In this document: positions 6,208-21,093 of the stretch, piece by piece
How positions within the stretch are numbered: position 1 is the stretch's first letter
Layout of the letters: every line of letters begins with the position of its first letter
Source: an uncultured Saprospiraceae bacterium
Lineage (GTDB): Bacteria; Bacteroidota; Bacteroidia; Chitinophagales; Saprospiraceae
Assembly: GCA_964513525.1 (NCBI GenBank)
Contig: CAZEOC010000001.1
Location: 1,048 to 35,504 of the forward strand
Direction: 5' to 3'
DNA length: 34,457 nucleotides
Notes under the pieces: model-generated
Database searches by the model: none
Seen by the model: only the letters and a program-made list of their open reading frames with translations
What the model was told of the DNA's origin: nothing
Position numbers and translations under genes: made by a program

Positions 6208-6603
6208 ATGAATCCAATTATATTATTTGATGGCGTTTGTAACCTTTGTAATGGTGCGGTTCAGTTCATCATTGAAAGGGATAAAGAACAAGTTTTTCGT
6301 TTTGCATCTTTACAATCGGAAATTGGACAGAAATATATGTTAGATGCTGGACTTTCGTTAGATGAAATTGATACGATTTTATTGGTTGAAAATGATGAAA
6401 TCTATTCTAAATCAACCGCGGCTTTGCGTATCGCAAAACGGTTGAACGGTTTATGGTTTATAATGTATGGTTTTATTATTGTTCCGACATTTCTAAGAAA
6501 TGGCGTTTATGATTTTATTGCTCGAAATCGCTACAAATGGTATGGTAAACAAGATAGTTGTTGGATGCCGACACCAGATTTAAAGAAATTATTTTTAGAT
6601 TAA
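6208..6603 (+). CDS. Thiol-disulfide oxidoreductase DCC family (DUF393) protein
   Basis: The N-terminal ILFDGVCNLCNGAVQFI CxxC motif and the ~130-aa size are typical of DCC/DUF393. Confidence 0.8.
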   Translation: MNPIILFDGVCNLCNGAVQFIIERDKEQVFRFASLQSEIGQKYMLDAGLSLDEIDTILLVENDEIYSKSTAALRIAKRLNGLWFIMYGFIIVPTFLRNGVYDFIARNRYKWYGKQDSCWMPTPDLKKLFLD

Positions 6604-6613
6604 AAAAAGATAG

Positions 6614-6650
6614 AAAACGATAATGATTAATAAATTATCGTTTTTTTAAT
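6614..6650 (+). terminator. Rho-independent terminator candidate after the DCC gene
   Basis: aaaacgataat (6614-6624) pairs with attatcgtttt (6634-6644), loop 9 nt, followed by a T run. Confidence 0.55.
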
Positions 6651-6793
6651 TTGTTGAATATTTAAACGATTAATAAGTAAAAGTTTGATTTTAAGTAATT
6701 CAATATTTTATTTTAATTAAAATCTATTTAGTAGAATATTATAACTTTCAATTCATATAATCCAAATAATTGCAATTTAAAGAACCACGGAAT

Positions 6794-6817
6794 TAATTAT
6801 TGTTTTAACAATAATTA
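6794..6817. promoter_or_regulatory. Perfect 11+2+11 palindrome TAATTATTGTT-TT-AACAATAATTA upstream of the arg promoter (candidate operator)
   Basis: Exact reverse complementarity was read from the sequence. It sits ~40 nt upstream of the putative -33 element. The binding factor is unknown. Confidence 0.3.
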
Positions 6818-6858
6818 GATGGACAAATTAAAAATATCATTAAAAACGATATTAATAA

Positions 6859-6889
6859 TTGCAAAAAATAAAAAACACTTCTATATTTG
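6859..6889 (+). promoter_or_regulatory. Bacteroidetes-type promoter candidate for the arg leader/operon
   Basis: TATATTTG at 6882-6889 matches the -7 consensus TAnnTTTG exactly. TTG at 6859-6861 lies 20 nt upstream, as expected for a -33 element. Caveat: the leader ATG is only 5 nt downstream of the -7 box. Confidence 0.45.
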
Positions 6890-6894
6890 ACCCA

Positions 6895-6984
6895 ATGAAT
6901 TTAAGGACGACATATAACAACATATCTACAAACTTGAACAACTCTGTTGAAGCACCTCGTCGTCGCCGCACTCCACGCCCTTAG
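6895..6984 (+). CDS. Arg-codon-rich leader peptide (29 aa): MNLRTTYNNISTNLNNSVEAPRRRRTPRP
   Basis: ATG 6895, TAG 6982-6984. Codons CGT CGT CGC CGC (6958-6969) plus CGC (6976-6978) form a GC-rich patch in otherwise very AT-rich intergenic DNA, 175 nt upstream of the first arg operon gene. Too short for the 60-aa ORF track. Confidence 0.6.
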   Translation: MNLRTTYNNISTNLNNSVEAPRRRRTPRP

Positions 6985-7143
6985 GGCGAATAATCTACAT
7001 ATTATCCTTTGGGATAGCTTTTAGGCTATCATTTATCAAGCTAAATTGAATGCTTTCTCCTATTTCAATTATGGCAACTCTACTATATCAATCAAAAAAA
7101 TTGTATAACAAAACTAAAAGATTTTAAGCATCTCTTAGTTTTT
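6976..7143 (+). promoter_or_regulatory. Candidate attenuator region with several alternative hairpins between leader and GNAT gene
   Basis: Hairpins read by hand. CGCCC-tta-GGGCG (6976-6988) includes the leader stop codon. tatcc/ggata (7003-7016) is mutually exclusive with gatagc/gctatc (7013-7030). aactaaaag/ctcttagtt (7112-7140) is followed by ttt. All stems are short, so the assignment is tentative. Confidence 0.35.
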
Positions 7144-7158
7144 AGATACCAATATATC

Positions 7159-7734
7159 ATGAAATTTAAAATCATCATTGGTCAAGCGAAACATCAAGTT
7201 TATGCAGAGGCAATTTGCAAACTAATTGAAGAATCTGCAAAGGTTCGAGGAACGGGAATTGCTAAACGAGAACCAGAATATATCAATAAACGATTACGAA
7301 ATGGCAATGCGATTATAGCATTTCAAGGTGAAACTTTAGCGGGTTTTTGTTATATCGAAAAGTGGGAACATGGAAAATATGTTGCTAATTCAGGTTTAAT
7401 TGTAAATCCAGATTTTCGTGGAAATGGCTTGGCAAGAGCGATTAAAGCAAAAGCTGTAAAGTTGGCGCAAAGAAAATATCCGAATGCAAAAGTATTCGGA
7501 ATAACGACAAGTTCCGCTGTGATGAAAATCAATTCTGAACTCGGTTATAGACCAGTTACTTTTTCAGAATTAACACAAGACGAAACCTTTTGGAATGGGT
7601 GCAAAAGTTGTAAAAACTATGATATTCTACAACGTAACGATAAAAAATTATGCTTGTGTACAGGAATGTTAGCACCGTCAGGAAATGAATTGAAAAAAAT
7701 GAAAATAGATTTATCAAATATGATTTTGGTATAA
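7159..7734 (+). CDS. GNAT-family N-acyltransferase, first gene of the arg operon (putative N-acyl-glutamate synthase)
   Basis: RGNGLARAIKAKAV matches the acetyl-CoA-binding motif A (R/Q-x-x-G-x-G/A). Its position directly upstream of argG is typical of Bacteroidetes arg clusters. No canonical argA or argJ is in the window. Confidence 0.7.
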   Translation: MKFKIIIGQAKHQVYAEAICKLIEESAKVRGTGIAKREPEYINKRLRNGNAIIAFQGETLAGFCYIEKWEHGKYVANSGLIVNPDFRGNGLARAIKAKAVKLAQRKYPNAKVFGITTSSAVMKINSELGYRPVTFSELTQDETFWNGCKSCKNYDILQRNDKKLCLCTGMLAPSGNELKKMKIDLSNMILV

Positions 7735-7776
7735 ATTTGCAGGGCAATGCCTTTGCTAATTTAAAAAAATATAAAA

Positions 7777-8979
7777 ATGAACAACAAAGTAGTTTTAGCA
7801 TATAGTGGCGGATTAGATACGTCTTTTTGTGTGAAATATCTAACGCAAGAAAAAGGTTTGGAAGTTCATGCAGTTATTATTAATACTGGTGGATTCTCGG
7901 AAGAAGAATTGAAAAATATTGAAACAAAAGCCTATGAATTAGGGGCGAAATCTTTTGAAGCAATAGATGTTACTCGTAAATATTATGATGAATGTTTAAA
8001 GTATTTGATTTATGGAAATGTATTACGAAATAATACGTATCCACTTTCTGTAAGTGCGGAAAGAATGTTTCAGGCTTTGGAAATTGCGAATTATGCTAAT
8101 AGGGTAGGAGCGACAAAAGTTGCACACGGAAGTACTGGAGCTGGAAATGACCAAATTCGTTTTGATTTAACCTTTCAAGTATTAGGGAATAATTTGGAAA
8201 TCATTACGCCAATTCGTGATTTACAATTATCTCGTCAAGCAGAAATTGAGTATTTGCAACAGAATGGCGTGGATTGGAGTTGGGAAAAAGCAAAATACTC
8301 TGTGAATCAAGGACTTTGGGGAACTTCAGTTGGTGGTGTAGAAACATTGACTTCTGACAAGGCTTTACCTGAATCTGCTTACCCTTCACAATTAGAAAAA
8401 ACGGAACCATCTGAAATTACTTTACATTTTGAAAAAGGAGAATTGAAAGGTATTAATGAAGAAACCTTTGAACATACCGTTCAAGCGATTCAAGCATTAC
8501 AAAAATTAGCTACACCTTATGCAATCGGTCGAGATATTCATGTTGGCGATACGATTATTGGTATCAAAGGACGAGTTGGTTTTGAAGCTGCTGCTCCAAT
8601 GATGATAATTAAAGCACATCATTTATTAGAAAAACATACCTTAACTAAATGGCAACAACATTGGAAAGACCAATTATCAAATTGGTACGGAATGATGTTG
8701 CATGAAGGACAATTTTTAGAGCCAGTTGCTCGAAATATGGAAACATTCATGGAAGATACACAGCAACATGTAACTGGTCAAGTTCATGTAGTTTTATTAC
8801 CATATCGTTTTGAATTACAAGGAATTACCTCTGATAACGATTTAATGAAATCATCATTTGGCGTTTATGGTGAAATGAATAAAGGTTGGACAGCTGATGA
8901 GGCTAAAGGTTTTATTAAAATATTAGCAAATCCGCAGCAAATTTATTATTCGGTACATAAGAAAGATAATCCAGAATAA
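7777..8979 (+). CDS. argG: Argininosuccinate synthase
   Basis: VLAYSGGLDTS ATP-pyrophosphatase motif, AHGSTGAGNDQIRF, 400 aa. Confidence 0.95.
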   Translation: MNNKVVLAYSGGLDTSFCVKYLTQEKGLEVHAVIINTGGFSEEELKNIETKAYELGAKSFEAIDVTRKYYDECLKYLIYGNVLRNNTYPLSVSAERMFQALEIANYANRVGATKVAHGSTGAGNDQIRFDLTFQVLGNNLEIITPIRDLQLSRQAEIEYLQQNGVDWSWEKAKYSVNQGLWGTSVGGVETLTSDKALPESAYPSQLEKTEPSEITLHFEKGELKGINEETFEHTVQAIQALQKLATPYAIGRDIHVGDTIIGIKGRVGFEAAAPMMIIKAHHLLEKHTLTKWQQHWKDQLSNWYGMMLHEGQFLEPVARNMETFMEDTQQHVTGQVHVVLLPYRFELQGITSDNDLMKSSFGVYGEMNKGWTADEAKGFIKILANPQQIYYSVHKKDNPE

Positions 8980-8993
8980 ACTAAGTCAAAAAC

Positions 8994-9962
8994 ATGAATT
9001 ACAAGATAGGAATCATTGGTGGTGGAGGATATACCGCTGGAGAATTATTACGTTTACTCGTCCATCATCCGCAAGTCGATATTGATTTTGTATTGAGTAA
9101 TAGCCAAAATGGAAAAAAAGTTAGCTTGGTTCATCAAGATTTAGTTGGTGATATTGATTTGGTATTTACAAATGAAATGAACTTAGAAGTTGATGTGATT
9201 TTCATTTGTTCAGGTCATGGATTTTCTAAAACTTTTTTAGCTGAAAATGAAGTGCCTGATAATATTGCAATCATTGATTTGAGTCGTGATTTTAGATTAA
9301 AAGAAGAAGGTAATAACTTCGTTTATGCTTTACCAGAATTACAAAAATCGGCGATAAAAGCGACAAATCGAATTGCAAATCCTGGTTGTTTTGCGACTGC
9401 AATTCAATTAGCGTTATTGCCTTTAGCTGCAAATCAGGCTTTGAAAAATGATATTCATATCAATGCTTTAACGGGTTCTACTGGTGCAGGACAAAAACCA
9501 ACTCCAACGTCACATTTTAGTTGGAGATTAAATAATATTTCAGTTTATAAACCTTTTACGCATCAACATTTAGGCGAAATCACACAAAGTTTGACGCAAT
9601 TACAAGCTGATTTTAATAGTGAAATCAATTTCTTGCCTGTCCGTGGAAACTTTGCAAGAGGTATTTATGCCAGTGCTTATACCAAATTTGAAGGTACAAT
9701 AGAAACTGCTTATAAATGGTATGAGGAATTTTATAAAGATTCCGCTTTTACGGTTGTAACGCACGAAAATCCAAATTTGAAGCAAGTCGTGAATACGAAT
9801 AAATGTGTGATTCATTTATTAAAACATGGCGATAAATTATTGATAATCAGTATGATTGATAATTTATTAAAAGGTGCTTCTGGTCAAGCCGTTCAGAATA
9901 TGAATTTAGTTTTGGGCTTACCCGAAAAATTGGGCTTAGGATTGAAAGCAGTTTATTTTTAA
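8994..9962 (+). CDS. argC: N-acyl-gamma-glutamyl-phosphate reductase
   Basis: N-terminal GGGGYTAGELLRLL Rossmann motif and the catalytic-Cys motif ANPGCFATA. 322 aa. Confidence 0.93.
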   Translation: MNYKIGIIGGGGYTAGELLRLLVHHPQVDIDFVLSNSQNGKKVSLVHQDLVGDIDLVFTNEMNLEVDVIFICSGHGFSKTFLAENEVPDNIAIIDLSRDFRLKEEGNNFVYALPELQKSAIKATNRIANPGCFATAIQLALLPLAANQALKNDIHINALTGSTGAGQKPTPTSHFSWRLNNISVYKPFTHQHLGEITQSLTQLQADFNSEINFLPVRGNFARGIYASAYTKFEGTIETAYKWYEEFYKDSAFTVVTHENPNLKQVVNTNKCVIHLLKHGDKLLIISMIDNLLKGASGQAVQNMNLVLGLPEKLGLGLKAVYF

Positions 9963-9970
9963 TTAGTTAC

Positions 9971-10110
9971 TGGATACTTGATACTGGATGCTTGATACTG
10001 ATTACCTGAAGCATGATTCTAAATTGTTAAATAAATTAATAATTTTAGTTTTCAAGAAGAGGATATCAGCAACGAACTACCAGTATCCAGTATCCAGCAT
10101 CAAGTATCCA
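9971..10110 (+). repeat. Long stem (30 positions) made of inverted heptamer arrays, filling the argC-argD spacer
   Basis: 9971-10000 (tggatac ttgatac tggatgc ttgatac tg) pairs with 10081-10110 (ca gtatcca gtatcca gcatcaa gtatcca). Hand count: 2 mismatches, 1 G-U. Loop is 80 nt and AT-rich. The stem starts 9 nt after the argC stop and ends 2 nt before the argD ATG. Confidence 0.7.
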
Positions 10111-10112
10111 AA

Positions 10113-11243
10113 ATGAAATTATTTGATGTTTATCCCGTTTTCGATATAGAACCCGTAAAGGGTGAAGGTTGTTATATTTACGATAAATCGGGCACAAAAT
10201 ATTTAGATTTTTATGGTGGTCATGCAGTCATTTCGATTGGACATTCGCATCCACATTATGTTGATAAAGTCGGTACTCAATTAGCAAATTTAGGATTTTA
10301 TTCTAATTCAGTTGAGAATAGTTTGCAAGTAGAATTAGCTGCAAAAATGGGTAAACTATCGGGCTTAGAAGATTACCAATTATTCTTATGTAATTCAGGT
10401 GCAGAAGCGAATGAGAATGCTTTGAAAATGGTTTCTTTTGAAACAGGAAAAACCAAAATTATTGCCTTTGAAAATGCCTTTCACGGTCGTACTTCTTCGG
10501 CAGTAAACATTACACATAACCCAAAAATACAAGCACCAATAAATCAAACTTTTGACCGAGAATGGTTAAAACTAAACGAAATTGCCCCAGTAGAAAAAAC
10601 TTTAGCAAAAGGCGATGTTGCTGCGATTATCATCGAAGGAATTCAAGGGATTGGCGGAATTTATGTTCCCACTAAAGAGTTTTTAGAAGCAGTTGCTGAA
10701 TTATGTAAAACCTATAATGTTCCCTTAATTTTAGATGAAATACAATCTGGAAGTGGTCGAAGTGGGAAATATTTTGCTTTTCAATATGCAGATATTCAGC
10801 CAGATATTATTTCTATTGCAAAAGGAATTGGAAATGGTTTTCCTGTTGGTGGAATTTTATTGTCACCAAAATACGAAGCCAAATACGGACTTTTAGGAAC
10901 AACTTTCGGTGGAAATCATTTGGCTTGTGCTGCTGCAATTGCAGTGTTAGAAGTATTAGAAAAGGAAAATTTAATCGAAAATGCCAACTTAGTAGGCGAT
11001 TATCTACAAGAGCAATTAAAACAAATTCCTTCTGTAAAAGCAGTTCGTGGAAAAGGTTTAATGATAGGAATTGATTTTGATTTCCCTGTTAAAGCTTTCA
11101 GAAAAAAATTGGTAAAAGAATATCGACTTTTTACAGGTTCTGCTGCTAATCCAAATACTGTACGACTTTTACCTCCTTTAAATATTACAAAAGTAGAAGC
11201 CGATTTATTTTTAGAAATTTTTAAAAAAGCATTAAAATCGTAG
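10113..11243 (+). CDS. argD: Acetyl/succinyl-ornithine aminotransferase (class III PLP)
   Basis: LILDEIQSGSGRSGKYFAF and the PLP-lysine context SIAKGIGNGFPVG. 376 aa. Confidence 0.92.
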   Translation: MKLFDVYPVFDIEPVKGEGCYIYDKSGTKYLDFYGGHAVISIGHSHPHYVDKVGTQLANLGFYSNSVENSLQVELAAKMGKLSGLEDYQLFLCNSGAEANENALKMVSFETGKTKIIAFENAFHGRTSSAVNITHNPKIQAPINQTFDREWLKLNEIAPVEKTLAKGDVAAIIIEGIQGIGGIYVPTKEFLEAVAELCKTYNVPLILDEIQSGSGRSGKYFAFQYADIQPDIISIAKGIGNGFPVGGILLSPKYEAKYGLLGTTFGGNHLACAAAIAVLEVLEKENLIENANLVGDYLQEQLKQIPSVKAVRGKGLMIGIDFDFPVKAFRKKLVKEYRLFTGSAANPNTVRLLPPLNITKVEADLFLEIFKKALKS

Positions 11244-11318
11244 GACAAACGGCATTGCCGAAATAGGATAATAAAATAAAATTATTACGTATTGGTAAAG
11301 GTAATGCCGTTTGCCCTA
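11241..11318 (+). repeat. 19-position stem closing the argD-argF' spacer
   Basis: 11241-11259 (taggacaaacggcattgcc, includes the argD stop TAG) pairs with 11300-11318 (ggtaatgccgtttgcccta). Hand count: 1 mismatch, 1 G-U. Loop 40 nt. The argF' ATG lies 15 nt downstream. Confidence 0.65.
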
Positions 11319-11332
11319 TTGAAAATAAAATC

Positions 11333-12277
11333 ATGAATTTCATTACACAAAACGATATTAATAATATTCCTCAATTAGTACAAGAAGCACTTGAATTAAA
11401 AGCTGACCCTTTGAAATATAGACATTTAGGAATTGGTAAAACTTTAGGTTTACTTTTTTTTAATAATAGTTTAAGAACTCGAATTAGTACTCAAAAAGCG
11501 GCGCAAAACTTAGGCTTAGAAAGCATCGTTTTGAATACAAATGATGGTTGGAAGTTGGAGTTTGAAGATGGAGCTGTGATGAATATTGATAAAGCGGAAC
11601 ATATCAAAGAAGCCGCTGCGGTGATGAGTCAATATTTTGATATTTTAGGCATTCGAGCTTTTCCTGGTCTGAAAAATAGAGTGGAAGATTATAGTGAAAA
11701 ATTGATGGGTGCTTTTTTGAAAAACACGACTGTACCAATTTTAAATATGGAAAGTAGTACACAACATCCTTTACAGTCAGTTGCAGATTTATTAACGATA
11801 GCGGAACATAAAACGGTTAAGAAACCAAAAATTGTTTTGTCTTGGGCACCTCATCCGAGAGCCTTGCCACAAGCCGTTGCGAATTCATTTTCTATTTGGA
11901 CACAAGCGGCTGGTTACGACCTGACGATTACTCATCCGAAAGGCATGGAGTTATCTCCAGATTTTGTTGGTGCGGCAACGGTTGAATACAATCAAGATAA
12001 GGCATTTGAAGGAGCAGATTTTATCTATACTAAAAACTGGTCATCTTTCAATAATTATGGTAAACCGTTGGGAAATCATGAAGATTGGATGATTACACAG
12101 GAAAAAATGGCTTTGACTAATAATGGTTATTTTATGCATTGTTTACCTGTTCGTCGGAATATGGTTGTCGCAGATGCTGTTTTAGATAGTTCGCAATCCT
12201 TGACAATACAACAAGCAAATAATCGAACTTTTGCGGCTCAAGCGGTGCTTAAAAGAATGTTAGAAAAAATAGCATAA
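11333..12277 (+). CDS. argF: N-acyl-ornithine carbamoyltransferase (argF' type: N-succinyl- or N-acetyl-ornithine transcarbamylase)
   Basis: FFNNSLRTRISTQKAA (carbamoyl-phosphate STRTR-like motif), WAPHPRALPQAV and HCLPVRRN match the Bacteroides/Xanthomonas argF' family as I recall it, rather than classical OTCase (HCLP...E). Confidence 0.88.
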   Translation: MNFITQNDINNIPQLVQEALELKADPLKYRHLGIGKTLGLLFFNNSLRTRISTQKAAQNLGLESIVLNTNDGWKLEFEDGAVMNIDKAEHIKEAAAVMSQYFDILGIRAFPGLKNRVEDYSEKLMGAFLKNTTVPILNMESSTQHPLQSVADLLTIAEHKTVKKPKIVLSWAPHPRALPQAVANSFSIWTQAAGYDLTITHPKGMELSPDFVGAATVEYNQDKAFEGADFIYTKNWSSFNNYGKPLGNHEDWMITQEKMALTNNGYFMHCLPVRRNMVVADAVLDSSQSLTIQQANNRTFAAQAVLKRMLEKIA

Positions 12278-12290
12278 AACGTAATAAAGT

Positions 12291-12337
12291 CCGTCATATC
12301 GACCTTTGTCGGCATGACGGTTTCTATCTGTTTTTTT
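12291..12337 (+). terminator. GC-rich hairpin plus U tract between argF' and argB (internal terminator/attenuator or RNA stabiliser)
   Basis: ccgtcatatcgac (12291-12303) pairs with gtcggcatgacgg (12308-12320): 13 positions, 1 mismatch, 1 G-U, loop cttt. Followed by tttctatctgttttttt. Confidence 0.5.
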
Positions 12338-12357
12338 AATACTCGAATAGTTATATT

Positions 12358-13104
12358 ATGAAGTTGAAAATCATAAAAATTGGCGGAAACGTCATTAATA
12401 ATAAAGAAAAATTAGCAGAAGCTTTAGCGAATTTTGCAGCGATAAAATCACCAAAAATACTCGTTCATGGTGGAGGAAGAAAAGCATCGGAACTGAGTAA
12501 ACAAATGGGTATCGAACCACAAATGATTAAAGGCAGACGAGTAACGAATGAAGCCACTTTAGAAATTGTTACGATGGTCTATTCTGGTTTATTGAATACA
12601 CAAATTGTCGCCAATTTACAGGCGTTAGGTTGTAATGCTTTGGGATTAAATGGAGCGGATATCAATGCCATTCAAAGTCATAAACGCATCGTCAAAGAGA
12701 TTGATTATGGTTTTGCGGGTGATGTTGATTTTTGTAATGCAGACTTATTATCTAAATTAATTCAATTAGGAATTTCGCCTGTTTTTTGTGCTATTACACA
12801 TGATAAAAAAGGACAATTATTAAATACAAATGCAGATACAATTGCATCAACTTTAGCAGTTGCTTTAAGTAAATTCTTTGAAGTAGAATTGACTTATACT
12901 TTTGAAAAAGCTGGCGTTTTGTACGATGCTGAAGATGATAATTCCTTAATTCCATTGATTACCAAAAGTGATTATGTACAATTAAAAAAAGATAAAATCA
13001 TTTTTGATGGCATGATTCCGAAGATTGATAATGCGTTTGACGCTTTGGAAAATGGAGTTAGTTTGGTGGAGATTGGTGGAACGAAATTTTTGTTAAACAC
13101 ATAA
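12358..13104 (+). CDS. argB: Acetylglutamate kinase-family (N-acyl-glutamate kinase)
   Basis: IIKIGGNV...LVHGGG...NTNADT amino-acid-kinase motifs. 248 aa. Confidence 0.9.
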   Translation: MKLKIIKIGGNVINNKEKLAEALANFAAIKSPKILVHGGGRKASELSKQMGIEPQMIKGRRVTNEATLEIVTMVYSGLLNTQIVANLQALGCNALGLNGADINAIQSHKRIVKEIDYGFAGDVDFCNADLLSKLIQLGISPVFCAITHDKKGQLLNTNADTIASTLAVALSKFFEVELTYTFEKAGVLYDAEDDNSLIPLITKSDYVQLKKDKIIFDGMIPKIDNAFDALENGVSLVEIGGTKFLLNT

Positions 13105-13211
13105 ATACATAGAAAACAAAGTTTTGATTTTAGCAACGCTAAAATGTTTTTATAAAATATTTCAACAAGGTTGAAATCAAAAAATTATATTCTTTATGTA
13201 CCTATGTGTTT
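13095..13211 (+). repeat. 19-position stem closing the argB-argE spacer
   Basis: 13095-13113 (aaacacataaatacataga, contains the argB stop) pairs with 13193-13211 (tttatgtacctatgtgttt, contains the GTG at 13206). There is a 2-nt internal mismatch and 1 G-U. Two small local hairpins lie inside the loop: ttttagc/gctaaaa at 13128-13144 and atttcaa/ttgaaat at 13159-13177. Confidence 0.5.
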
Positions 13212-14285
13212 CAAGATAAAAAAATGAAACAACAAGTAATAAACTTACTAAAGCAGCTCATATCCACACAATCGTTCTCAAGAGAAGAAGAGAATACAGC
13301 CGAAATTATCAATAATTTCCTACAAAAAAACGGCGTCGAAACGATACGAAGTGGCAATAATGTTTGGTGTAAATCAAAACATTTTGATGAAGCGAAACCA
13401 ACAATTTTATTGAATTCTCATCATGATACTGTGAAGCCAGTACAAGGTTGGACGAGAAATCCATTCGAACCGACGGTTGAAAATGGGAAATTATATGGAT
13501 TAGGCAGTAATGATGCTGGTGCTTCTTTGGTGAGTTTGATGGCTACTTTTTTGCATTTTCATGAACAAGAAATGCCATTTAATTTGATTTATGCCGCAAC
13601 GGCTGAAGAGGAAATTTCGGGTGTAAATGGAATTGCTTCTATTAAGGTTGATTTTGGTAAAATTGCTGGTGGAATTATCGGTGAACCAACTCAAATGAGA
13701 ATGGCAATTGCAGAAAAAGGTTTGATGGTTGTCGATGGAATTGCTCATGGAAAAGCTGGTCATGCTGCAAGAGAAGAAGGTGTGAATGCGATGTATATCG
13801 CTTTGGAGGATATTGATTTTATTAGAAATTATGAATTTACGGAAGTATCAGAATTGTTAGGAAAAACGAAACTTTCGGTGACACAAATCGAAGCTGGAAC
13901 GCAGCACAATGTCGTGCCTGACACTTGTAAATTTGTAATGGATATTCGGACAACGGAGAAACATACGAATCAAGGCGTTTTTGATTTTTTACAGAAAAAT
14001 ACACAATCCCAATTGAAGGCTCGTTCGTTTCGATTGAATTCTTCGGGTATTGATTTATCGCATCCGTTGGTGAAAAGTGGTTTGTCGTTGGGGCTAGAAT
14101 ATTTCGGTTCTTCGACACTTTCTGACCAAGCATTATTGGATTTTCCGACGGTAAAAATGGGTGTGGGAAAATCAAAACGCTCACATACTGCGAACGAGTT
14201 TATTTGTTTGAAAGAGATTGAGAAGGGAATCGATTTGTATGTTGAGTTTATTAAAAATATTGAGTTTGAAAACGCTAAAATTTAA
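13206..14285 (+). CDS. argE: M20-family N-acyl-ornithine deacylase (ArgE-like)
   Basis: LLNSHHDTV, SNDAGAS and EEE motifs of M20 metallopeptidases (ArgE/DapE). The track start is GTG 13206. An in-frame ATG at 13224 (MKQQVINLLKQLI) is an equally good or better start. Confidence 0.85.
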   Translation: MFQDKKMKQQVINLLKQLISTQSFSREEENTAEIINNFLQKNGVETIRSGNNVWCKSKHFDEAKPTILLNSHHDTVKPVQGWTRNPFEPTVENGKLYGLGSNDAGASLVSLMATFLHFHEQEMPFNLIYAATAEEEISGVNGIASIKVDFGKIAGGIIGEPTQMRMAIAEKGLMVVDGIAHGKAGHAAREEGVNAMYIALEDIDFIRNYEFTEVSELLGKTKLSVTQIEAGTQHNVVPDTCKFVMDIRTTEKHTNQGVFDFLQKNTQSQLKARSFRLNSSGIDLSHPLVKSGLSLGLEYFGSSTLSDQALLDFPTVKMGVGKSKRSHTANEFICLKEIEKGIDLYVEFIKNIEFENAKI

Positions 14286-14391
14286 CATAAATTCAAAAAA
14301 CATTTTAGAGTCGACAAGGTTTATATTGATGTAATAATTTGTTGAAAAACAATTAATTATTCAATTTCATAAATCTTAAAAACAGTCTAAT

Positions 14392-14910: not shown

Positions 14911-16848
14911 TTATTTTTTAATAAATCGTTTTGTCGTATTTCCTGTTTTAATAAAGTAAATTCCACTTTGTAAATCACTTACATTTATTGCCGTTATTCT
15001 TGTGTTTTCAATTGATTGAGCTTTTATGAAATTTCCTAATACATTATAAATTTGAACTTCAAATGTATGAGTATTTGAAAAGAAATGGAGTTTTAATGTC
15101 TCCTCTACTGGATTCGGATAAATCTGAAAATCAGAAGCTAATTTTGTTTGTTCACAATTGATGGTGATAATATTTGAATACGTAAATTTCCCATCAAAAT
15201 CGACTTGTTTTAATCGGTAAAAACCTTGTTTTGAAAAATCATGAAGAGTATTCAAAAAGTGATAATTCTGGGCTTCGATGGTTGTGCCTTTTCCTTTTAA
15301 TTGACCAATTTTATTGAAATCAAATCCATCGTTTGAATATTCGATTTCAAAATGCGAATTATTTTGTTCAGAAATGGTTTTCCAATTTAATTCTACGCTT
15401 CCATTAGCTAAGCAAGTTGTATTAAAATCTGTCAATTCAATTGGCAAAACATTATTACAATTACTGCTACAATTAACGGTTGGATTGTAAGATTGATTGT
15501 TTTTATCAAATCGATATACTCGAATTGCTGGGGCAATTCCATTTGTGAAATCACAAAATCTATATCCATAATAATACAAACCTCGAGCAACTTCTTCATA
15601 ATTTATTTCCTTACAAACGCCATTGTAAACTTCTTGACAACTACCAGTTCGGGTATTTCCGACAGTATCCACAAAACCTAAATTATCAACTCTATTTGCT
15701 TCCCAAATTGTGTTTTTTCGTAAAATGCAATCTAAGTTTGGATAAGGAAAACGCAAGGTATAATAATTCAATTCAAAAATTGACGTACCTTGATAACTCG
15801 TATCATAACCGCCTTTTTCGCAGAAAATACTATCTTTCATAATCTCTAAACCTTGTGCAATAAAGGTTCGAGAAATTGGTAAATAAGTCGTCGTATCATC
15901 AATTAATAAACCTGTCAAAGCAATTGCATTAGCATCGATAAAAAGTCGATTTGCGGCTTGTTTATCATATTGATTAAATAATAAATCTAACTCTACTGGA
16001 TTCGTAATGTAAGCTAAAGCATTTTGAATAAAGGGCAGATATTTCGTTAAACTATCTTGATAAGTTGCCAAATAAGGCGATTCTTTCAAGAGTAAAAGCG
16101 AATGACTACATTCATGTAACCAAAAAGCAGCATCTGATGAATTATCACCAAATCCACCATCAGCTTGTTGTTGCTCAAAAGTAACTCGAATCGTTTGCCA
16201 AGCATCTTCCATCATATCGGTATCATTATGAATCAAACCGCCTAACATTCTACGAACGCCGCCTCGCTGAAATTCTGCACCTTGCCAACCAGATTGATTT
16301 GTACCAATCATTCCATTTGCATCGGGTTCGCCTCCTGAACTTACATAATCAAAAAAATCCGTCGGCATATTTGATAAAAGCGCATATTCGTCATTTTCAC
16401 AAGCGGAAATACCACAATTATTATCAATCGGCGTATAAGTATTCAAAATTTGATATGCCATTGTTGATGGAGTTCCTGTTCCAACACAATTAAAACGCAT
16501 CATTAAGACTCGAAATGTTCCACTCGAAGTTGCTGTCCAAACCAAACGAGAAGAACGGTCGCAATAATCATCATCAAAAGCTAAGGCATTTCCACTATTA
16601 TCTAAAATCGTAATTTTAGTATCAAAAGCAGTCAAACCGCCATCGTCAGGATGCGTTGAAAAAAGAAATATTTGTCCTGCGGTTGCTGTAAATGTATAAT
16701 ATCGACCGCCTTTGATAGCAATTGTATTGACAGAACTACTCGGAACAGGAGATAAAACTCCTTCATCTGAACCGCCTGTACATTGTGCAATCAGTTGAAT
16801 AGTGCTTAAAAAGGATAAGCTTAAAAACAAAAGTAGGATGCGTTTCAT
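14911..16848 (-). CDS. T9SS-secreted protein: PPC-like N-domain, helical central domain of unknown function, Fn3-like domain, T9SS C-terminal sorting domain
   Basis: Signal peptide MKRILLLFLSLSFLSTIQLIAQ. YYTFTATAGQIF...FDDDYCDRSSRLVWTATSSGTFRV resembles the pre-peptidase C-terminal domain. The C-terminus LPIELTDF...YRLKQVDFDGKFTYSN...IYPNPVEETLKLHF...GIYFIK is a type-A T9SS sorting signal. Confidence 0.8.
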   Translation of the reverse strand: MKRILLLFLSLSFLSTIQLIAQCTGGSDEGVLSPVPSSSVNTIAIKGGRYYTFTATAGQIFLFSTHPDDGGLTAFDTKITILDNSGNALAFDDDYCDRSSRLVWTATSSGTFRVLMMRFNCVGTGTPSTMAYQILNTYTPIDNNCGISACENDEYALLSNMPTDFFDYVSSGGEPDANGMIGTNQSGWQGAEFQRGGVRRMLGGLIHNDTDMMEDAWQTIRVTFEQQQADGGFGDNSSDAAFWLHECSHSLLLLKESPYLATYQDSLTKYLPFIQNALAYITNPVELDLLFNQYDKQAANRLFIDANAIALTGLLIDDTTTYLPISRTFIAQGLEIMKDSIFCEKGGYDTSYQGTSIFELNYYTLRFPYPNLDCILRKNTIWEANRVDNLGFVDTVGNTRTGSCQEVYNGVCKEINYEEVARGLYYYGYRFCDFTNGIAPAIRVYRFDKNNQSYNPTVNCSSNCNNVLPIELTDFNTTCLANGSVELNWKTISEQNNSHFEIEYSNDGFDFNKIGQLKGKGTTIEAQNYHFLNTLHDFSKQGFYRLKQVDFDGKFTYSNIITINCEQTKLASDFQIYPNPVEETLKLHFFSNTHTFEVQIYNVLGNFIKAQSIENTRITAINVSDLQSGIYFIKTGNTTKRFIKK

Positions 16849-16887
16849 TTCAGTTATTGAAAATTTTTAGTGGAAAATAAATAAGTT

Positions 16888-19800
16888 TTACCTGATGATT
16901 ATTCGTTCTATTGATTCTCCAATCTTTAAAAAATAAATACCTGAGTTTAGTTTTAAATTCAATTCAATATCTTTTTTATTTTCAATAGTATCTTCAAATA
17001 CGATTCTTCCTAAGACATCATAAATTAAAATTGAATTAGTAACGGCTTTATCAAACTGTAAGACAATTTGTCCATTTGTTGGATTTGGAAATACAGTAAA
17101 TCCATGCTTTTTAACAAAGCAATCTATTGAAATTACATTAGAATATTCAAAACTTCCGTCAAAATCAACTTGCTTTAAACGATAATAAACCGTTTCGGAA
17201 TATTCATTTTTATCTTGAAAAATATAATTTGAAATGGTAGGATTTATTCCTTTTCCTTTGACGAATTCAATTTCTTTCCATTCGATTATTCCTAATTCGT
17301 CATTTGTAATTCCTACTTCTACAAAAAAACCGTGATTATTTTTTTCAGTAGCCGTTTGCCAATTCAAAAAAATTCGTTCATTTTCGCATGTCGCTTGAAA
17401 ATTTATTAATTCAACAGGTAAAGGATTTGTGACGGTAATACCATTTGCTGTGAAGCTATCAAAAGTCAAAAAGTTCCCATAAGTACTTCGAGGACTTTCA
17501 CAAATGAAACCAACTGCTGTAATATTGGTGAAATCCACTGCTTGAAACGTTGGTAAAATATTCGGAATAGAAAAATCATTCGCTGTTGGTGTAATAATTC
17601 CCCAACGTTTTCCTACTGTTGAGTTATTATTAAAATCATTAAGTGTAATTAAACCAACCATGTTTTCTGAAAATTCAGACATATAATAAACGCCATTCTG
17701 TCTAATTACAAAACGCATATCTAAATTTTCTCGCTTTCCTGTAACATTAATATTCAAAGAACTATTTGATGAATTATTATCAAAACCAATATCAAATAAA
17801 TGCAAATTATTTAAAAACTGGTCTTTTCGCCACAAGTAAAACAGTTCAATATTTGTTGCTTCTCCATCACCTCCAGCCACTTGACACCAAAATTGGTTCG
17901 CCGAAAATCCAACATCGTTTCTCCGCATTTCGTGATTGATAGAAGTGCCTATATTAGTAAAAGAATATTTCACGCCACCATATATCTCAACTTGATTATA
18001 ATTAGGTGCCGTAAATAAATTATCGCTATCAGCTGTTCCAAAACTAATTGATTGTGATAAACTATTTGCGGATAATTGAGGACTTCTATTAATGGAGAAA
18101 TCTGTATCAGGTACATCAATACCTTGAAAATTTATCAGTTGACCAGAAGTCGGTATATTATAAACAAACTCAACTTGATTATCTGTACTACTTGCTACTT
18201 CATTACCTTGACTATATAGTGGTGTTATTGCTTTATCCGCAGCTAATTCGACAATTACCAAACCATCAGCAGACATTCCACTAACAGAAATTTGAAAAGT
18301 TGTCCCATCATTCGGTGTAATCTCTGTAATTATAACAGTTGTAGGATTAGCTGATCCACTTAATGTAATATCATTAGCATCAAAATTTATAATTGATTCA
18401 CTAAAAACAGCAGTAAATAGAATAGGCGTATTTAAAGTCGGATCAACTTGTGTTGTTGCTTGATTTAAAGTCACCGTTGGACGATTTGCACCATTAAAAG
18501 CAACAATATTGTCGGTCGATGTTGAATGATAATTAGTATGATTGGTACTATTATGTGCCGTTAAACTATCAATGTTTAAGATGACAAAACCATTTTGTGC
18601 CAAGTCCGTAATACTGATTTCATAAGTTGTTCCATCGTTGGGTGCGAGTGATGTAATAGTTGCCGTTGTTCCATTGTCTGTTGCTGTTCCAGAAATTGTT
18701 ATATCATTTGCAGTAAAATCACTGGTTGGTTCGCTAAAAGTAGCTTTATATATGATAGGTTCTATTGCTGTTACATCAGCTTGTGTTATTGCTTGATTAA
18801 GCGTTACTGTGAATTCAGAATTTGATTTAGTGAAGACTTGAAACTGATCAAATGAAAAAGTTGCACCATAACCAGTTCTATAATTATCTACTACAAAACC
18901 AACGGCTTCTACATCATCAAATGTCATTGCAAAAGGACTTGACAATGGAGTGGGAATAGAAAAATTAATTGCTGTCGGATTATAATGATACCAACGTTTG
19001 GCAGGTTGTTCTGAATTATTGAATGCATCTAATTCATAAAAACCATTGTTATACGCCATAAAATCCGAAATGTAATAATTCCCATTTTGTTTAATAACAA
19101 ATCGAAAGTCTGAACCTGCACCGCTATTTTTATTGGTTCCAATATTAATGGCTAATTTCCCAATATTGACATTTGTAGCTACATCATAATTATTTAAAAA
19201 TTGATCTTTCTTCCATAAAAATAATAGTTCTAAATCTGCTTCATCTGTACCTCCAGTGTGTAAATCTGCAATAAATATATCCTGTGGACCATAATTACTC
19301 AAATTGTAAGTATAACTACCAACAACTTGATTCTTGTAATCCAGCTTAACACCACCATAAAACTCTGATTGATTTTGCCCAGTTGTAAACAAATTATCAC
19401 CATTTGCTACACTAAAAGGAATCAAAATATCATTGGTATTTAAGGTGAAATTTCGATTCTGTGTTACTGTTAGCGCAGGTAAATCATCACCATCAAAATT
19501 GATTAATGTGTCGCCTATTGCAGGTACTGCGGTTGTAGCAGTTGAAAGCCACCATGCAGGCGAATTTGCCGCCGTAAACTCCTGTGTAGCCGCATATTTT
19601 GGTGTTGTCCAATAATCTTGATTATAATTTTCTAAAATCCCCCAACTTCCCCATTTAGAGGGAACACCCATTGAAGAAAAAACAGCAAATAGTTCACCGC
19701 CTGCTATTTTCCATCGTTCATAATACTCTTGATATAATACTTTCATTTTATCTGAGCGATTAGCAGCAATGAGCTTAGCCGTCAAAGCATCATTGTTTTC

Positions 19801-21093
19801 TGCACCTAAATATCCCGATAAATGTTGTCCCCCTTCATAAGCAATCAGTGAAACACCACGACTTTTAGTTATTTCCGCTTGTAATCTGCAACCTTCCATT
19901 ACATCAGATAAAGCATCTTCACACCAAATTAAAATAGAATCAACTGACATATTTGCTATGCTATCTGCAGTAGTAGGATCGCCTAAAAAATTACCAAAAT
20001 AAGGAGCAATAGAAAAGGCATCCGTAGATTGATATGTGTTGTTATAATCTAAAATTTGCTGGCTCCACGAAGTATTAAAATTTTGCCATGCTATGACTCT
20101 TTCTAATTGAGATAAACCACCAAAAACAGTTTCGAAAATATTGAAAATTTCTACCGAACGTTTTGCATGAAAATAGGCTTGTGCCTCATAACTGTTTGTA
20201 CTTAAGTTTTGTGCTAAACCTTGTGCAGAAGCATAGGGTGCTTGCGCAAATAAACCATTCCAAACCTCGTTGGAATATTCGACATAAATATCTAAATTAC
20301 TATCGAGGTTATCTCTGAATAAGGTTGCTAACTGGGTTATATAATTATCATCCGCTTGATGCGGAATACAAATCCAAACATTTTTTTGTAGTAGATTTGC
20401 CAAAGCGATCATATATTCTGGGGCAACACCATTGATGCCGCCTTGCGTTTGTGAAGTCGTTAGGGTTCGATCTGTCCAAGTTTGTACATTACTATTATTC
20501 GTTCTGCCCCAATCCATAAAACGAAGGGTAGAAAAATCTGTCCAAGTATTTAAGAAGTTAGGATGAAAAGGTTCGGTTTGATAAGTGTTTTCAAAGCCAG
20601 GCATTATTAATCGAATATTTTTCAAGTAATCGCCTGTACCATTTGGATCCGTTTCCCAAATGTGCACCCAAATACCACTTGTCCCATCGGCTACTTCCAA
20701 TTGAATATGTCCAGGCGCAACATGTATTGTATCCGTTACATCACCATTAAAATCAAAACTTCCTTCGCCTTCATAATATAAATTATAAGTCCCAATAGGT
20801 TTTGTTGTTACATTATCCAACATAACAGTTGCGGCAAAATGATTAGCAGGCAAACTCGTTACCCAACCTAAATTATCTGTAGGTAAAGGATTTCCTGTTC
20901 CAAATGTGCAACCAACACATTGCGAAATCCATCCTCTGGAACATTTCATCGCATCTACAAAAACATATTCTTCGCTCCATGAAGTAATTCCAGCGAGGTT
21001 GATACCTAAAGGTGTATTTTGATTATTTTGTGCTTCTGTATTAAAGAATATTAGAAAAAATATTATCGTAAAACTTAGTTTTTTAAACATCAT
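16888..21093 (-). CDS. Giant T9SS-secreted protein: GH-A-like (beta/alpha)8 domain, two copies of an unknown ~230-aa module, two Ig-like domains, Fn3-like domain and T9SS CTD
   Basis: Signal peptide MMFKKLSFTIIFFLIFFNTEAQ. LRFMDWGRTNN...IYVEYSNEVWN...LIAYEGGQH resembles clan GH-A acid/base (NE) and nucleophile (E) strands; this is inference. The repeated module spans ~19512-18825 and ~18140-17445, and the Ig-like pair ~18820-18145. The C-terminal FPNPTNGQIVLQF...GIYFLKI is the T9SS CTD. Confidence 0.8.
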   Translation of the reverse strand: MMFKKLSFTIIFFLIFFNTEAQNNQNTPLGINLAGITSWSEEYVFVDAMKCSRGWISQCVGCTFGTGNPLPTDNLGWVTSLPANHFAATVMLDNVTTKPIGTYNLYYEGEGSFDFNGDVTDTIHVAPGHIQLEVADGTSGIWVHIWETDPNGTGDYLKNIRLIMPGFENTYQTEPFHPNFLNTWTDFSTLRFMDWGRTNNSNVQTWTDRTLTTSQTQGGINGVAPEYMIALANLLQKNVWICIPHQADDNYITQLATLFRDNLDSNLDIYVEYSNEVWNGLFAQAPYASAQGLAQNLSTNSYEAQAYFHAKRSVEIFNIFETVFGGLSQLERVIAWQNFNTSWSQQILDYNNTYQSTDAFSIAPYFGNFLGDPTTADSIANMSVDSILIWCEDALSDVMEGCRLQAEITKSRGVSLIAYEGGQHLSGYLGAENNDALTAKLIAANRSDKMKVLYQEYYERWKIAGGELFAVFSSMGVPSKWGSWGILENYNQDYWTTPKYAATQEFTAANSPAWWLSTATTAVPAIGDTLINFDGDDLPALTVTQNRNFTLNTNDILIPFSVANGDNLFTTGQNQSEFYGGVKLDYKNQVVGSYTYNLSNYGPQDIFIADLHTGGTDEADLELLFLWKKDQFLNNYDVATNVNIGKLAINIGTNKNSGAGSDFRFVIKQNGNYYISDFMAYNNGFYELDAFNNSEQPAKRWYHYNPTAINFSIPTPLSSPFAMTFDDVEAVGFVVDNYRTGYGATFSFDQFQVFTKSNSEFTVTLNQAITQADVTAIEPIIYKATFSEPTSDFTANDITISGTATDNGTTATITSLAPNDGTTYEISITDLAQNGFVILNIDSLTAHNSTNHTNYHSTSTDNIVAFNGANRPTVTLNQATTQVDPTLNTPILFTAVFSESIINFDANDITLSGSANPTTVIITEITPNDGTTFQISVSGMSADGLVIVELAADKAITPLYSQGNEVASSTDNQVEFVYNIPTSGQLINFQGIDVPDTDFSINRSPQLSANSLSQSISFGTADSDNLFTAPNYNQVEIYGGVKYSFTNIGTSINHEMRRNDVGFSANQFWCQVAGGDGEATNIELFYLWRKDQFLNNLHLFDIGFDNNSSNSSLNINVTGKRENLDMRFVIRQNGVYYMSEFSENMVGLITLNDFNNNSTVGKRWGIITPTANDFSIPNILPTFQAVDFTNITAVGFICESPRSTYGNFLTFDSFTANGITVTNPLPVELINFQATCENERIFLNWQTATEKNNHGFFVEVGITNDELGIIEWKEIEFVKGKGINPTISNYIFQDKNEYSETVYYRLKQVDFDGSFEYSNVISIDCFVKKHGFTVFPNPTNGQIVLQFDKAVTNSILIYDVLGRIVFEDTIENKKDIELNLKLNSGIYFLKIGESIERIIIR

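Follow-up and report, generated by a model that had tools for sequence, protein, structure and literature searches.

A conserved arginine-rich leader open reading frame upstream of a Saprospiraceae arginine-biosynthesis operon is a candidate leaderless attenuator

In a 34,457-nucleotide stretch of DNA from an uncultured Saprospiraceae bacterium (assembly GCA_964513525.1, contig CAZEOC010000001.1, positions 1,048 to 35,504; here, the window), the arginine-biosynthesis operon is preceded by an arginine-rich leader open reading frame (ORF) that is real, conserved across the phylum Bacteroidota, unannotated, and probably regulatory. We consider it probable that the element is a cis-acting arginine sensor, namely, an arginine-specific leader-peptide attenuator carried on a leaderless mRNA. 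It fits best among the leader-peptide attenuators, as a new member that is specific for arginine and leaderless in its architecture. Textbook control of arginine biosynthesis is repression by ArgR, and leader-peptide attenuation is the textbook mode for tryptophan, histidine, leucine, threonine, phenylalanine, and isoleucine/valine but not for arginine.

A first-pass annotation of the window had called a 29-codon, arginine-rich ORF ahead of the arg operon, and that call is exact. The ORF, MNLRTTYNNISTNLNNSVEAPRRRRTPRP, runs on the plus strand from an ATG at 6895 to a TAG at 6982 to 6984 and lies between a -7 promoter box and the first gene of the operon, which encodes a GNAT acetyltransferase; 174 nt separate the leader stop from the GNAT ATG (7159). 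Arginine takes up 5 of the 29 codons, compared to 2.9% of the codons in the 18 long ORFs of the window, an enrichment in cognate codons beyond chance. Four of the five are consecutive (CGT CGT CGC CGC) and the fifth is another CGC. No other RRRR occurs in any of the six frames of the 34.5-kb window; on the minus strand, the one match is the reverse complement of this run. It sits inside a 36-nt G+C island (6953 to 6988) with a GC content of 0.72 between flanks of 0.24 and 0.26, in keeping with the GC-rich patch in AT-rich DNA that had been described. The earlier remark that CGC is rare in the genes of the window is also borne out, since it makes up 15 of 264 arginine codons (5.7%) in the same 18 ORFs. 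Gene callers left the leader ORF uncalled in all eight related contigs that we fetched.

Bacteroidota do without Shine-Dalgarno-led initiation. The -7 box in front of the leader, TAtaTTTG (TATATTTG), leaves just 5 nt between its end and the leader ATG. In Flavobacterium johnsoniae, transcription starts 4 to 5 nt past the -7 element (PMC6847099). Because the box in the window ends at 6889, the transcript is predicted by this spacing to begin at 6894 or 6895, and the leader ORF should be effectively leaderless. The box close to the ATG had been recorded before and set down as an oddity. The box stands; the oddity does not, as the same geometry, with the box 4 to 10 nt ahead of the ATG, recurs in 63 of 143 related loci, compared to 4 instances on the reverse strand. 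The ORF, its arginine run, and the promoter geometry of a leaderless transcript can all be read directly from the DNA.

To follow the leader beyond the window, we searched species-representative genomes for GNAT homologues and took 80 of the surrounding loci, among the matches listed (at least ∼600 GNAT loci exist), together with 67 loci from metagenomes and 8 close relatives found by exact protein look-up. The combined set comprised 143 nonredundant GNAT-argG loci from Saprospiraceae, Lewinella, Flavobacteriaceae, and Balneolaceae; individual loci are given below by L numbers. ORFs were chosen in a noncircular way, in that only a strict TAnnTTTG box followed after 3 to 10 nt by an ATG was required, within 400 nt upstream of the GNAT homologue, and arginine content was ignored. 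This rule, which places the ATG at the predicted transcription start, picked 65 ORFs in those 63 loci. The 65 ORFs contain 17% arginine overall and 37.5% in their last eight residues, where 44 of them have at least three arginines, compared to 4.2% arginine in the adjacent GNAT genes. The four ORFs picked by the reverse-strand control contain none. Arginine codons in the picked ORFs were distributed as CGC 92, CGT 64, AGG 27, CGA 17, CGG 15, and AGA 6, and the leader of L071, for instance, carries the run AGG-AUU-AGG-AUA-AGG-AGG. Because all six arginine codons are used, selection has acted on arginine, as amino acid or tRNA, and not on a G+C-rich string alone. A count of at least four arginines in the eight codons before a stop gave 40 of the 80 listed loci on the forward strand against 7 of 80 on the reverse complement.

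The same picture holds at both short and long evolutionary distances. In close relatives (74 to 90% GNAT identity), the promoter, the ATG, the frame, and the arginine run are all kept, and the four indels within the leader ORF are each 3 nt long, with downstream indels being of any length. Between clades, the ORF, its frame, and its arginine codons persist while the remaining peptide drifts, and a short ORF ending in an arginine run lies 5′ of GNAT in almost every lineage (endings ...RRVRRRP-stop, ...RRFPRRP-stop, ...PTRRRP-stop, ...IPRRR-stop, and ...LLRRRI-stop). The first-pass annotation had staked its reading on conservation of the ORF and arginine run in relatives; both are conserved phylum-wide, with all six arginine codons, in-frame indels, and hairpin covariation. 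Culturable carriers occur among Maribacter, Arenibacter, Gelidibacter, Gracilimonas, and Neolewinella (loci L035 to L080). The first-pass annotation had sought these relatives in the Flavobacteriia. Flavobacteriaceae do carry the element, and the nearest named relatives of the GNAT protein, among the matches listed, belong to Saprospiraceae, Lewinella, and Haliscomenobacter rather than to Flavobacteriia.

The leader RNA is also structured. As a whole, the free leader folds more stably than shuffled sequences (z = -2.4). Its outer helix, P1, pairs a segment near the 5′ end with arginine codons 22 to 24, encloses the inner hairpin P2, and, alone among the long-range duplexes of the window, outscores shuffles (3.7% of shuffles equal it). 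Compensatory variants of P1, identified by eye, include ACGAC:GUCGU, GCGAC:GUCGC (L037 and L021), AUGCAC:GUGCAU (L029), and GACGAA:UUCGUC (L022). Immediately downstream, the stop codon is embedded in the CGCCC/GGGCG hairpin that had been noticed previously, here called S (-7.0 kcal/mol), which is conserved and covaries. Its 5′ arm consists of the last arginine codon and the proline codon, and the UAG occupies the loop and the first stem pair. Hairpin S was found in essentially all families and is retained even where the ORF runs through it (L021, L025, L028, L011, and L024), with covarying versions such as CGCAC:GUGCG (L048 and L050), CGCCG:CGGCG (L024), and CGCCU:AGGCG (Lewinella type). An alignment of the region from S through B made with MAFFT misregistered the arms of S, so covariation was read from per-sequence hairpin tables instead. 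In L048 and L050, the peptide ends in PRT-stop in place of PRP-stop and the 3′ arm of S has changed in step from GGGUG to GUGCG; since the PRT variants carry a compensating arm, the terminal proline appears to be a side effect of building the hairpin. One tRNA normally decodes both CGU and CGC. For this reason, and because G+C-rich codons build P1 and S, we dropped rarity of CGC as the sensing principle; the bias toward CGY in an A+T-rich genome is better explained by the building of P1 and S than by codon rarity.

Between S and the GNAT gene, four further hairpins are predicted (Table 1). Hairpins A and B are mutually exclusive, as had been proposed, because the 3′ arm of A and the 5′ arm of B have positions 7013 to 7016 in common. 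Over 18 Saprospiraceae-type loci, the arms of A covary (UACCC:GGGUA, CAUCC:GGAUG, CCUAC:GUAGG, and CCUU:AAGG), and the overlapping A/B pair scores a mean z of -3.6 against shuffles, with no shuffle as good in 11 loci. Hairpin B is followed by a U-tract in some relatives: GUUUUUU in L081 and L090, UUUUUU in L099, and GUUUUCC in L003. The previously described hairpin and T run upstream of GNAT correspond to hairpin T (7110 to 7143), which folding predictions make the best intrinsic-terminator candidate in the window and whose position is conserved in relatives. There, a hairpin plus U-run is built from a different stem, as in L086 to L088 (CCUGACAG...CUGUGAGG-UUUU) and in L005, L016, L021, L022, and L084. 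A simple consensus scan found no terminator in the interval from the leader ORF to GNAT; it misses T because it demands at least three G-C pairs while these stems are A/U-rich. Across the loci, the predicted P1, S, A/B pair, and hairpin with U-run at the position of T are conserved with compensatory changes in their stems. Hairpin C lies between B and T. Its 5′ arm, UAAAUUGAAUG (7042 to 7052), is complementary at 9 of 11 positions to both the leader start (6893 to 6903) and the GNAT start (7158 to 7168), two regions that resemble each other (AUGAAUUUA and AUGAAAUUUA); this complementarity is A/U-rich and no better than in shuffles.

Table 1. Features of the leader region and the operon downstream, in window coordinates
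Feature	Position	Strand	Basis
-33-like TTG of a Bacteroidota-type promoter	6859..6861	+	T-T-G invariant in close-relative alignment; 20 nt 5′ of -7 box
-7 promoter box TAtaTTTG	6882..6889	+	TA..TTTG invariant in close relatives
Predicted leaderless 29-codon leader ORF, MNLRTTYNNISTNLNNSVEAPRRRRTPRP plus stop	6895..6984	+	Sequence, conservation in relatives, indels in threes
Regulatory Arg codons CGU CGU CGC CGC and CGC	6958-6969 and 6976-6978	+	Sequence, codon counts, relatives
Helix P1, GACGAC:GUCGUC	6906-6911:6959-6964 (Arg codons 22-24)	+	Folding, by-eye compensatory variants
Inner hairpin P2	6933-6940:6945-6952	+	Enclosed by P1
Hairpin S, CGCCC-UUA-GGGCG	6976-6980:6984-6988	+	-7.0 kcal/mol; covarying variants
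Hairpin A, UAUCC-UUUG-GGAUA, candidate antiterminator	7003-7007:7012-7016 (feature 7002..7017)	+	-4.9 kcal/mol; covariation
Hairpin B, GAUAGCU-UUUA-GGCUAUC with A/U-rich tail, candidate terminator or pause	7013-7019:7024-7030 (feature 7012..7037)	+	-8.4 kcal/mol
Hairpin C	7040..7075	+	Compensatory U-A to C-G change in L086
Hairpin T, AAAA-CUAAAAGAU...AUCUCUUAG-UUUUU, candidate terminator	7110-7122:7130-7142, U run to 7143	+	16 nt before GNAT ATG
ACAUAU motif	6910-6915, 6920-6925, 6997-7002	+	Nucleotide-level conservation in differing reading frames
Operon: GNAT acetyltransferase, argG, argC, argD, acetylornithine-type carbamoyltransferase, argB, argE-like deacylase	7159..14285	+	NCBIfam, Pfam

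From this arrangement, we infer that the leader ORF is translated, that ribosome stalling derepresses the operon, that transcription terminates at B and/or T, and that the stall is relayed to A, B, and T. Transcription would start at 6895 or 1 nt earlier, and the leaderless 29-codon ORF would be translated during leader synthesis. When charged tRNA-Arg is scarce, the ribosome would stall at the five CGY codons (6958 to 6978), which form the 3′ arm of P1 and the 5′ arm of S; the stalled ribosome, and any queued behind it, would hold P1 and S open and occupy the 5′ RNA. The stall would then shift the folding of A/B and of the terminator-like T, and RNA polymerase would read into GNAT-argG-argC-argD-argF′-argB-argE. 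When arginine is plentiful, the ribosome would reach the stop codon in the loop of S and leave, P1, S, B, C, and T would all form, and with the leader in this most stable fold transcription would end at B and/or T. Of the ribosome-mediated attenuation originally proposed, the leader ORF and the hairpins hold good; a ribosome-dependent switch of the expected polarity did not emerge from modeling, and attenuation remains a candidate mechanism.

It is this last step, together with some features of the leader itself, that weighs against the attenuator. We placed ribosome masks at each arginine codon in turn and at the stop codon, either alone or with a queue of ribosomes behind them, and refolded the RNA by minimum free energy and partition function. 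At equilibrium, masking produced no consistent change in hairpin B over 15 loci. The folding check for alternative structures that had been recommended was answered by a leader more stable than shuffles and by the A/B pair, and not by an antiterminator for T: among RNAduplex pairings in the window of B with T, C with T, and the 5′ region with downstream sequence, none beat shuffles. The 5′ arm of A lies 20 nt beyond the stop, past the reach of a terminating ribosome. The simplest chain, running from S through pairing of the S 3′ arm with the A 5′ arm and loss of A to formation of B, has a stall at the middle arginine codons favor B, and it therefore predicts termination on starvation, opposite in polarity to what a biosynthetic operon requires. 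In one sister lineage (L081 to L083 and L089, four independent assemblies), a deletion of 1 nt just 5′ of the usual stop carries the leader ORF on across S and A to end in ...PRRRRTPRLRATYLHIIR-stop, with its UAG at the foot of B (L081:1222-1341); L090 keeps the normal stop. This extension is hard to reconcile with B as a regulated terminator. The tail of B in the window is just AUUUAUC, a poor U-tail. Finally, close relatives scarcely vary at the third codon positions of GUUGAAGCACCUCGUCGU, so much of the leader's conservation is at the RNA level. In our models, a ribosome position that selects terminator over antiterminator with the right polarity could not be derived from the window sequence, and the geometry would fit related leader types only.

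Two other candidate relays were rejected. In Flavobacteriaceae, an A-like pairing of the U/C-rich tail after S with the second hairpin reached -1.55 kcal/mol, compared to -1.20 kcal/mol for shuffles, and is unsupported. A helix between the 5′-terminal AUG and the ACAUAU box past S was rejected as a general relay, being convincing by eye in some lineages only: it spans 8 bp in both L005 and L006 and 6 bp in L099, compared to 3 to 4 bp in the window. The ACAUAU motif itself, which includes CAU, the complement of the start codon, is kept near codons 5 to 8 and again past S in many clades. It is read in different frames, as ACA-UAU (T-Y) in the window and as A-CAU-AU (H-I) in Flavobacteriaceae.

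The leaders of other lineages offer geometries that the window does not. A separate family of arg leaders is typified by MNKTSVHITSLSRINRPTTSPEVRIL (L107:404-535) and was also seen in L113, L117, L118, L120, L122, L123, L124, L130, and L148. In the L107 type, the 5′-terminal AUGAAU pairs with an AUUCAU about 30 nt past the stop, followed by UUUUUCAUUUU, and the terminator-like stem therefore needs a start codon free of ribosomes. These leaders have only two or three arginine codons; those at positions 13 and 24 are separated by 11 codons, about one ribosome footprint. Flavobacteriaceae also have leaders in two parts, where a 5′ arm rich in A and including an arginine codon pairs with a U-rich arm plus U-run past the stop. 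Such leaders (L035, L043, L045, L058, L074, L032, L048, and L050) lie about 230 nt upstream of GNAT and begin with a leaderless ORF (e.g., MILMKNKIRPSSPAMVLRRRCAF) that has its own A/U-rich long-range stem and U-run. In L045, L058, L048, and L050, this is followed by a mini-ORF of 8 to 9 codons (MCRIFPRRP-stop or MRCRFPRRT-stop) with S. All two-part loci carry S and a further hairpin with a conserved loop. That hairpin occurs about 60 to 70 nt before GNAT in L041 (2437 to 2459) and 27 other Flavobacteriaceae-type loci, once per locus, with an invariant loop UAGGUG(A/U)GUCC (UAGGUGAGUCC) on covarying stems (GGAAAU:AUUUCC, GGAGCC:GGCUCC, and UGAACU:AGUUCA). In sequence, the loop is similar to the 3′ arm of S, and it has partial complementarity to the 3′ end of 16S rRNA (CACCU). 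In Balneolaceae, a covarying long-range helix joins codons 7 to 10 to a site just 5′ of a small hairpin plus U-run.

These geometries suggest that occupancy of the 5′ end by ribosomes on a very short leaderless ORF is the signal common to the related leader types, and the same may apply to the window. A broader reading, which we advance tentatively and rate somewhat below even, is that a phylum-wide family of leaderless arginine-codon leaders, not described before, controls arginine biosynthesis in Bacteroidota, with the mRNA 5′ end (in some lineages, the start codon) serving as one arm of a terminator or closing helix. The stall would be relayed to that end by occupancy or queuing instead of through four alternative regions of the classical kind, and charging of tRNA-Arg, not ArgR, would be the main signal here.

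The alternative that survives best keeps the arginine-codon sensor and changes its output, which would be Rho-dependent termination or initiation of GNAT translation rather than intrinsic termination at B or T. We regard it as unlikely, although several observations lean toward it. The spacer at 7025 to 7142 is G-poor (6 G compared to 12 to 15 C per 78 nt), Lewinella-type spacers are 42 to 49% C and 15 to 23% G, and in many Flavobacteriaceae the second hairpin has no canonical U-tract. Furthermore, the 5′ arm of C matches the GNAT start region at 9 of 11 positions, and in mycobacteria a leaderless analogue that has been studied experimentally exerts its control on translation of the next gene (bioRxiv 10.1101/834739). 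Against these stand the textbook form of T, with its A-tract, hairpin, and U5, and the U6 that follows B in sister lineages. The match between C and the GNAT start is A/U-rich and at the level of shuffles. For Rho in particular, P1 and S tie up the C-rich patch of the free RNA, which would load the factor poorly, and the G-rich CGG codons of Balneolaceae mean that a C-rich rut site is not general.

We also weighed whether the product might be an arrest peptide, sensing free arginine in the ribosome tunnel and stalling at the Pro-stop in the manner of TnaC, SpeFL, or the fungal arginine attenuator peptide. An Arg-Pro-stop ending is found in 30 of the 80 relatives listed, and a conserved hairpin keeps the stop codon in its loop. 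TnaC, too, ends in ...HRP-stop. Set against this resemblance, no feature of the peptide other than the arginine run is conserved between clades, and the only shared N-terminal motif is a nucleotide motif in differing frames. The C-terminal residue varies, from RP-stop through RT-stop with hairpin compensation (L048 and L050), RRR-stop, and RL-stop to read-through of S, and Balneolaceae ORFs finish in ...PRRR-stop. In addition, a ribosome parked at the stop favored read-through in all structural models tried, which would amount to induction by arginine. On these points taken together, an arrest peptide is very improbable. Least credible of all is a structured RNA that is not translated and serves, for instance, to bind a protein or ligand, its ORF and arginine codons being by-products of G+C-rich arms: the strong nucleotide conservation, third codon positions included, the stable leader fold (z = -2.4), and the invariant Flavobacteriaceae loop UAGGUGAGUCC, which suggests a trans-acting partner, are outweighed by an arginine frame that coincides with the frame of the promoter-proximal ATG across lineages despite differing nucleotides (CGY, CGG, AGG, and CGA), by indels in threes, by the 63 of 143 loci in which an ATG coincides with the predicted start of transcription, and by zero matches in Rfam for the window region and 16 related loci.

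The attenuator reading has clear counterparts among known systems. The leader resembles trpL, hisL, leuL, thrL, pheL, and ilvL of Proteobacteria in being a short upstream ORF enriched in codons for the end product, and pheL also ends in Pro-stop. As in the trp 1:2 hairpin, the regulatory codons lie in one hairpin arm and the stop lies between that arm and its partner, and as in the classical attenuators generally, mutually exclusive hairpins are followed by a hairpin plus U-run before the first gene. It departs from them in its amino acid, there being no arginine leader family in Rfam 15, Pfam-A, or NCBIfam; in its leaderless mRNA; in having more helices (P1, P2, S, A, B, C, and T) than the classical four-region scheme; and in that a ribosome-to-terminator relay of the right polarity could not be derived here. 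Searches of Rfam 15 with the window region and with 16 related loci gave no gathering-score match, the window region yielded nothing except noise at E ≤ 10, and six leader peptides had no match in Pfam-A or NCBIfam at E values up to 10. Full-text searching of literature with partial journal coverage turned up no arginine leader for the arg genes of any bacterium.

Three sets of published leaders are the closest comparisons. The study of Flavobacterium psychrophilum includes, in its text and supplement, predicted leaders for ilvE, hisG, and trp (Bacteroid-trp) that share with ours the phylum, the promoter type, and the principle, e.g., a His-rich ORF, MSLNQLHHHHFHICSQAKC, with a downstream terminator (PMC9723704). 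The tabulated ilvE and hisG transcripts begin about 9 and 14 nt before the ATG, unlike the arg leader transcript, which is predicted to begin right at its ORF; the word "arginine" is absent from those supplement files that contain leader-peptide passages, and no arginine leader appears there (PMC9723704). Mycobacterial polycysteine short ORFs are likewise leaderless, unannotated first cistrons with a run of end-product codons, in which stalled ribosomes block an inhibitory mRNA structure and free the downstream ribosome-binding site (Canestrari et al., bioRxiv 10.1101/834739). They differ in sensing cysteine, in belonging to another phylum, and in acting by ribosome-binding-site release; here, by contrast, the arginine run shows no complementarity to the start region of GNAT, and the leader contains terminator-like hairpins. 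The rbfL leader of Staphylococcus aureus is a small peptide that senses arginine limitation through arginine codons and ribosome pausing (PMC13009471). Unlike the leader described here, rbfL is 8 codons long, uses the rare AGA/AGG codons, and extends into the ribosome-binding site of a biofilm regulator, which it represses on starvation; it has no link to arginine biosynthesis and is not homologous (PMC13009471).

Among arrest peptides, TnaC senses tryptophan, SpeFL senses ornithine, and the fungal arginine attenuator peptide senses arginine, and all three rely on conserved exit-tunnel residues and a free ligand. The likeness extends to an upstream ORF ending in Arg-Pro-stop (TnaC) or to the sensing of arginine (the fungal peptide); in the leaders studied here, only the arginine codons are conserved and the terminal proline is dispensable. 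ArgR with its ARG boxes and the arginine T-boxes of some Firmicutes, which read tRNA-Arg charging, answer the same physiological question. Here, neither a T-box nor any other Rfam match was found, and a scan of the window for ARG boxes (TGAATWWWWATTCA, up to 3 mismatches) returned 114 matches where 113 were expected, with none at 2 mismatches or fewer in 6760 to 7160; a divergent Bacteroidota ArgR motif is possible. The scan agrees with the earlier suggestion of a control mode other than ArgR.

Upstream of the leader, a gene for a DCC1-like thiol-disulfide oxidoreductase (6208 to 6603) is followed by a hairpin, AAAACGATAAT...ATTATCGTTTT, and a T run at 6612 to 6650, which is probably the terminator of that gene and insulates the arg promoter. 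Within the operon, 150 nt separate argC from argD (9963 to 10112), and a 106-nt gap (14286 to 14391) follows the argE-like gene before an unassigned 148-amino-acid ORF. No argH was seen adjoining the operon, although no dedicated look was taken at this point. On the minus strand at 14911 to 21093, two large proteins (645 and 1401 amino acids) carry type IX secretion C-terminal sorting domains, which confirms the Bacteroidota origin of the DNA.

Because the leader ORF was uncalled in every related contig examined, its recognition is a gain for annotation. The polarity of the structural relay is a concrete, testable mechanistic problem, and the element is a potential arginine-responsive genetic part for Bacteroidota. 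If our reading is correct, the leader would provide a natural system for leaderless translation coupled to transcription, and the attenuation repertoire would gain its missing arginine case, conserved in a phylum that is large and ecologically dominant.

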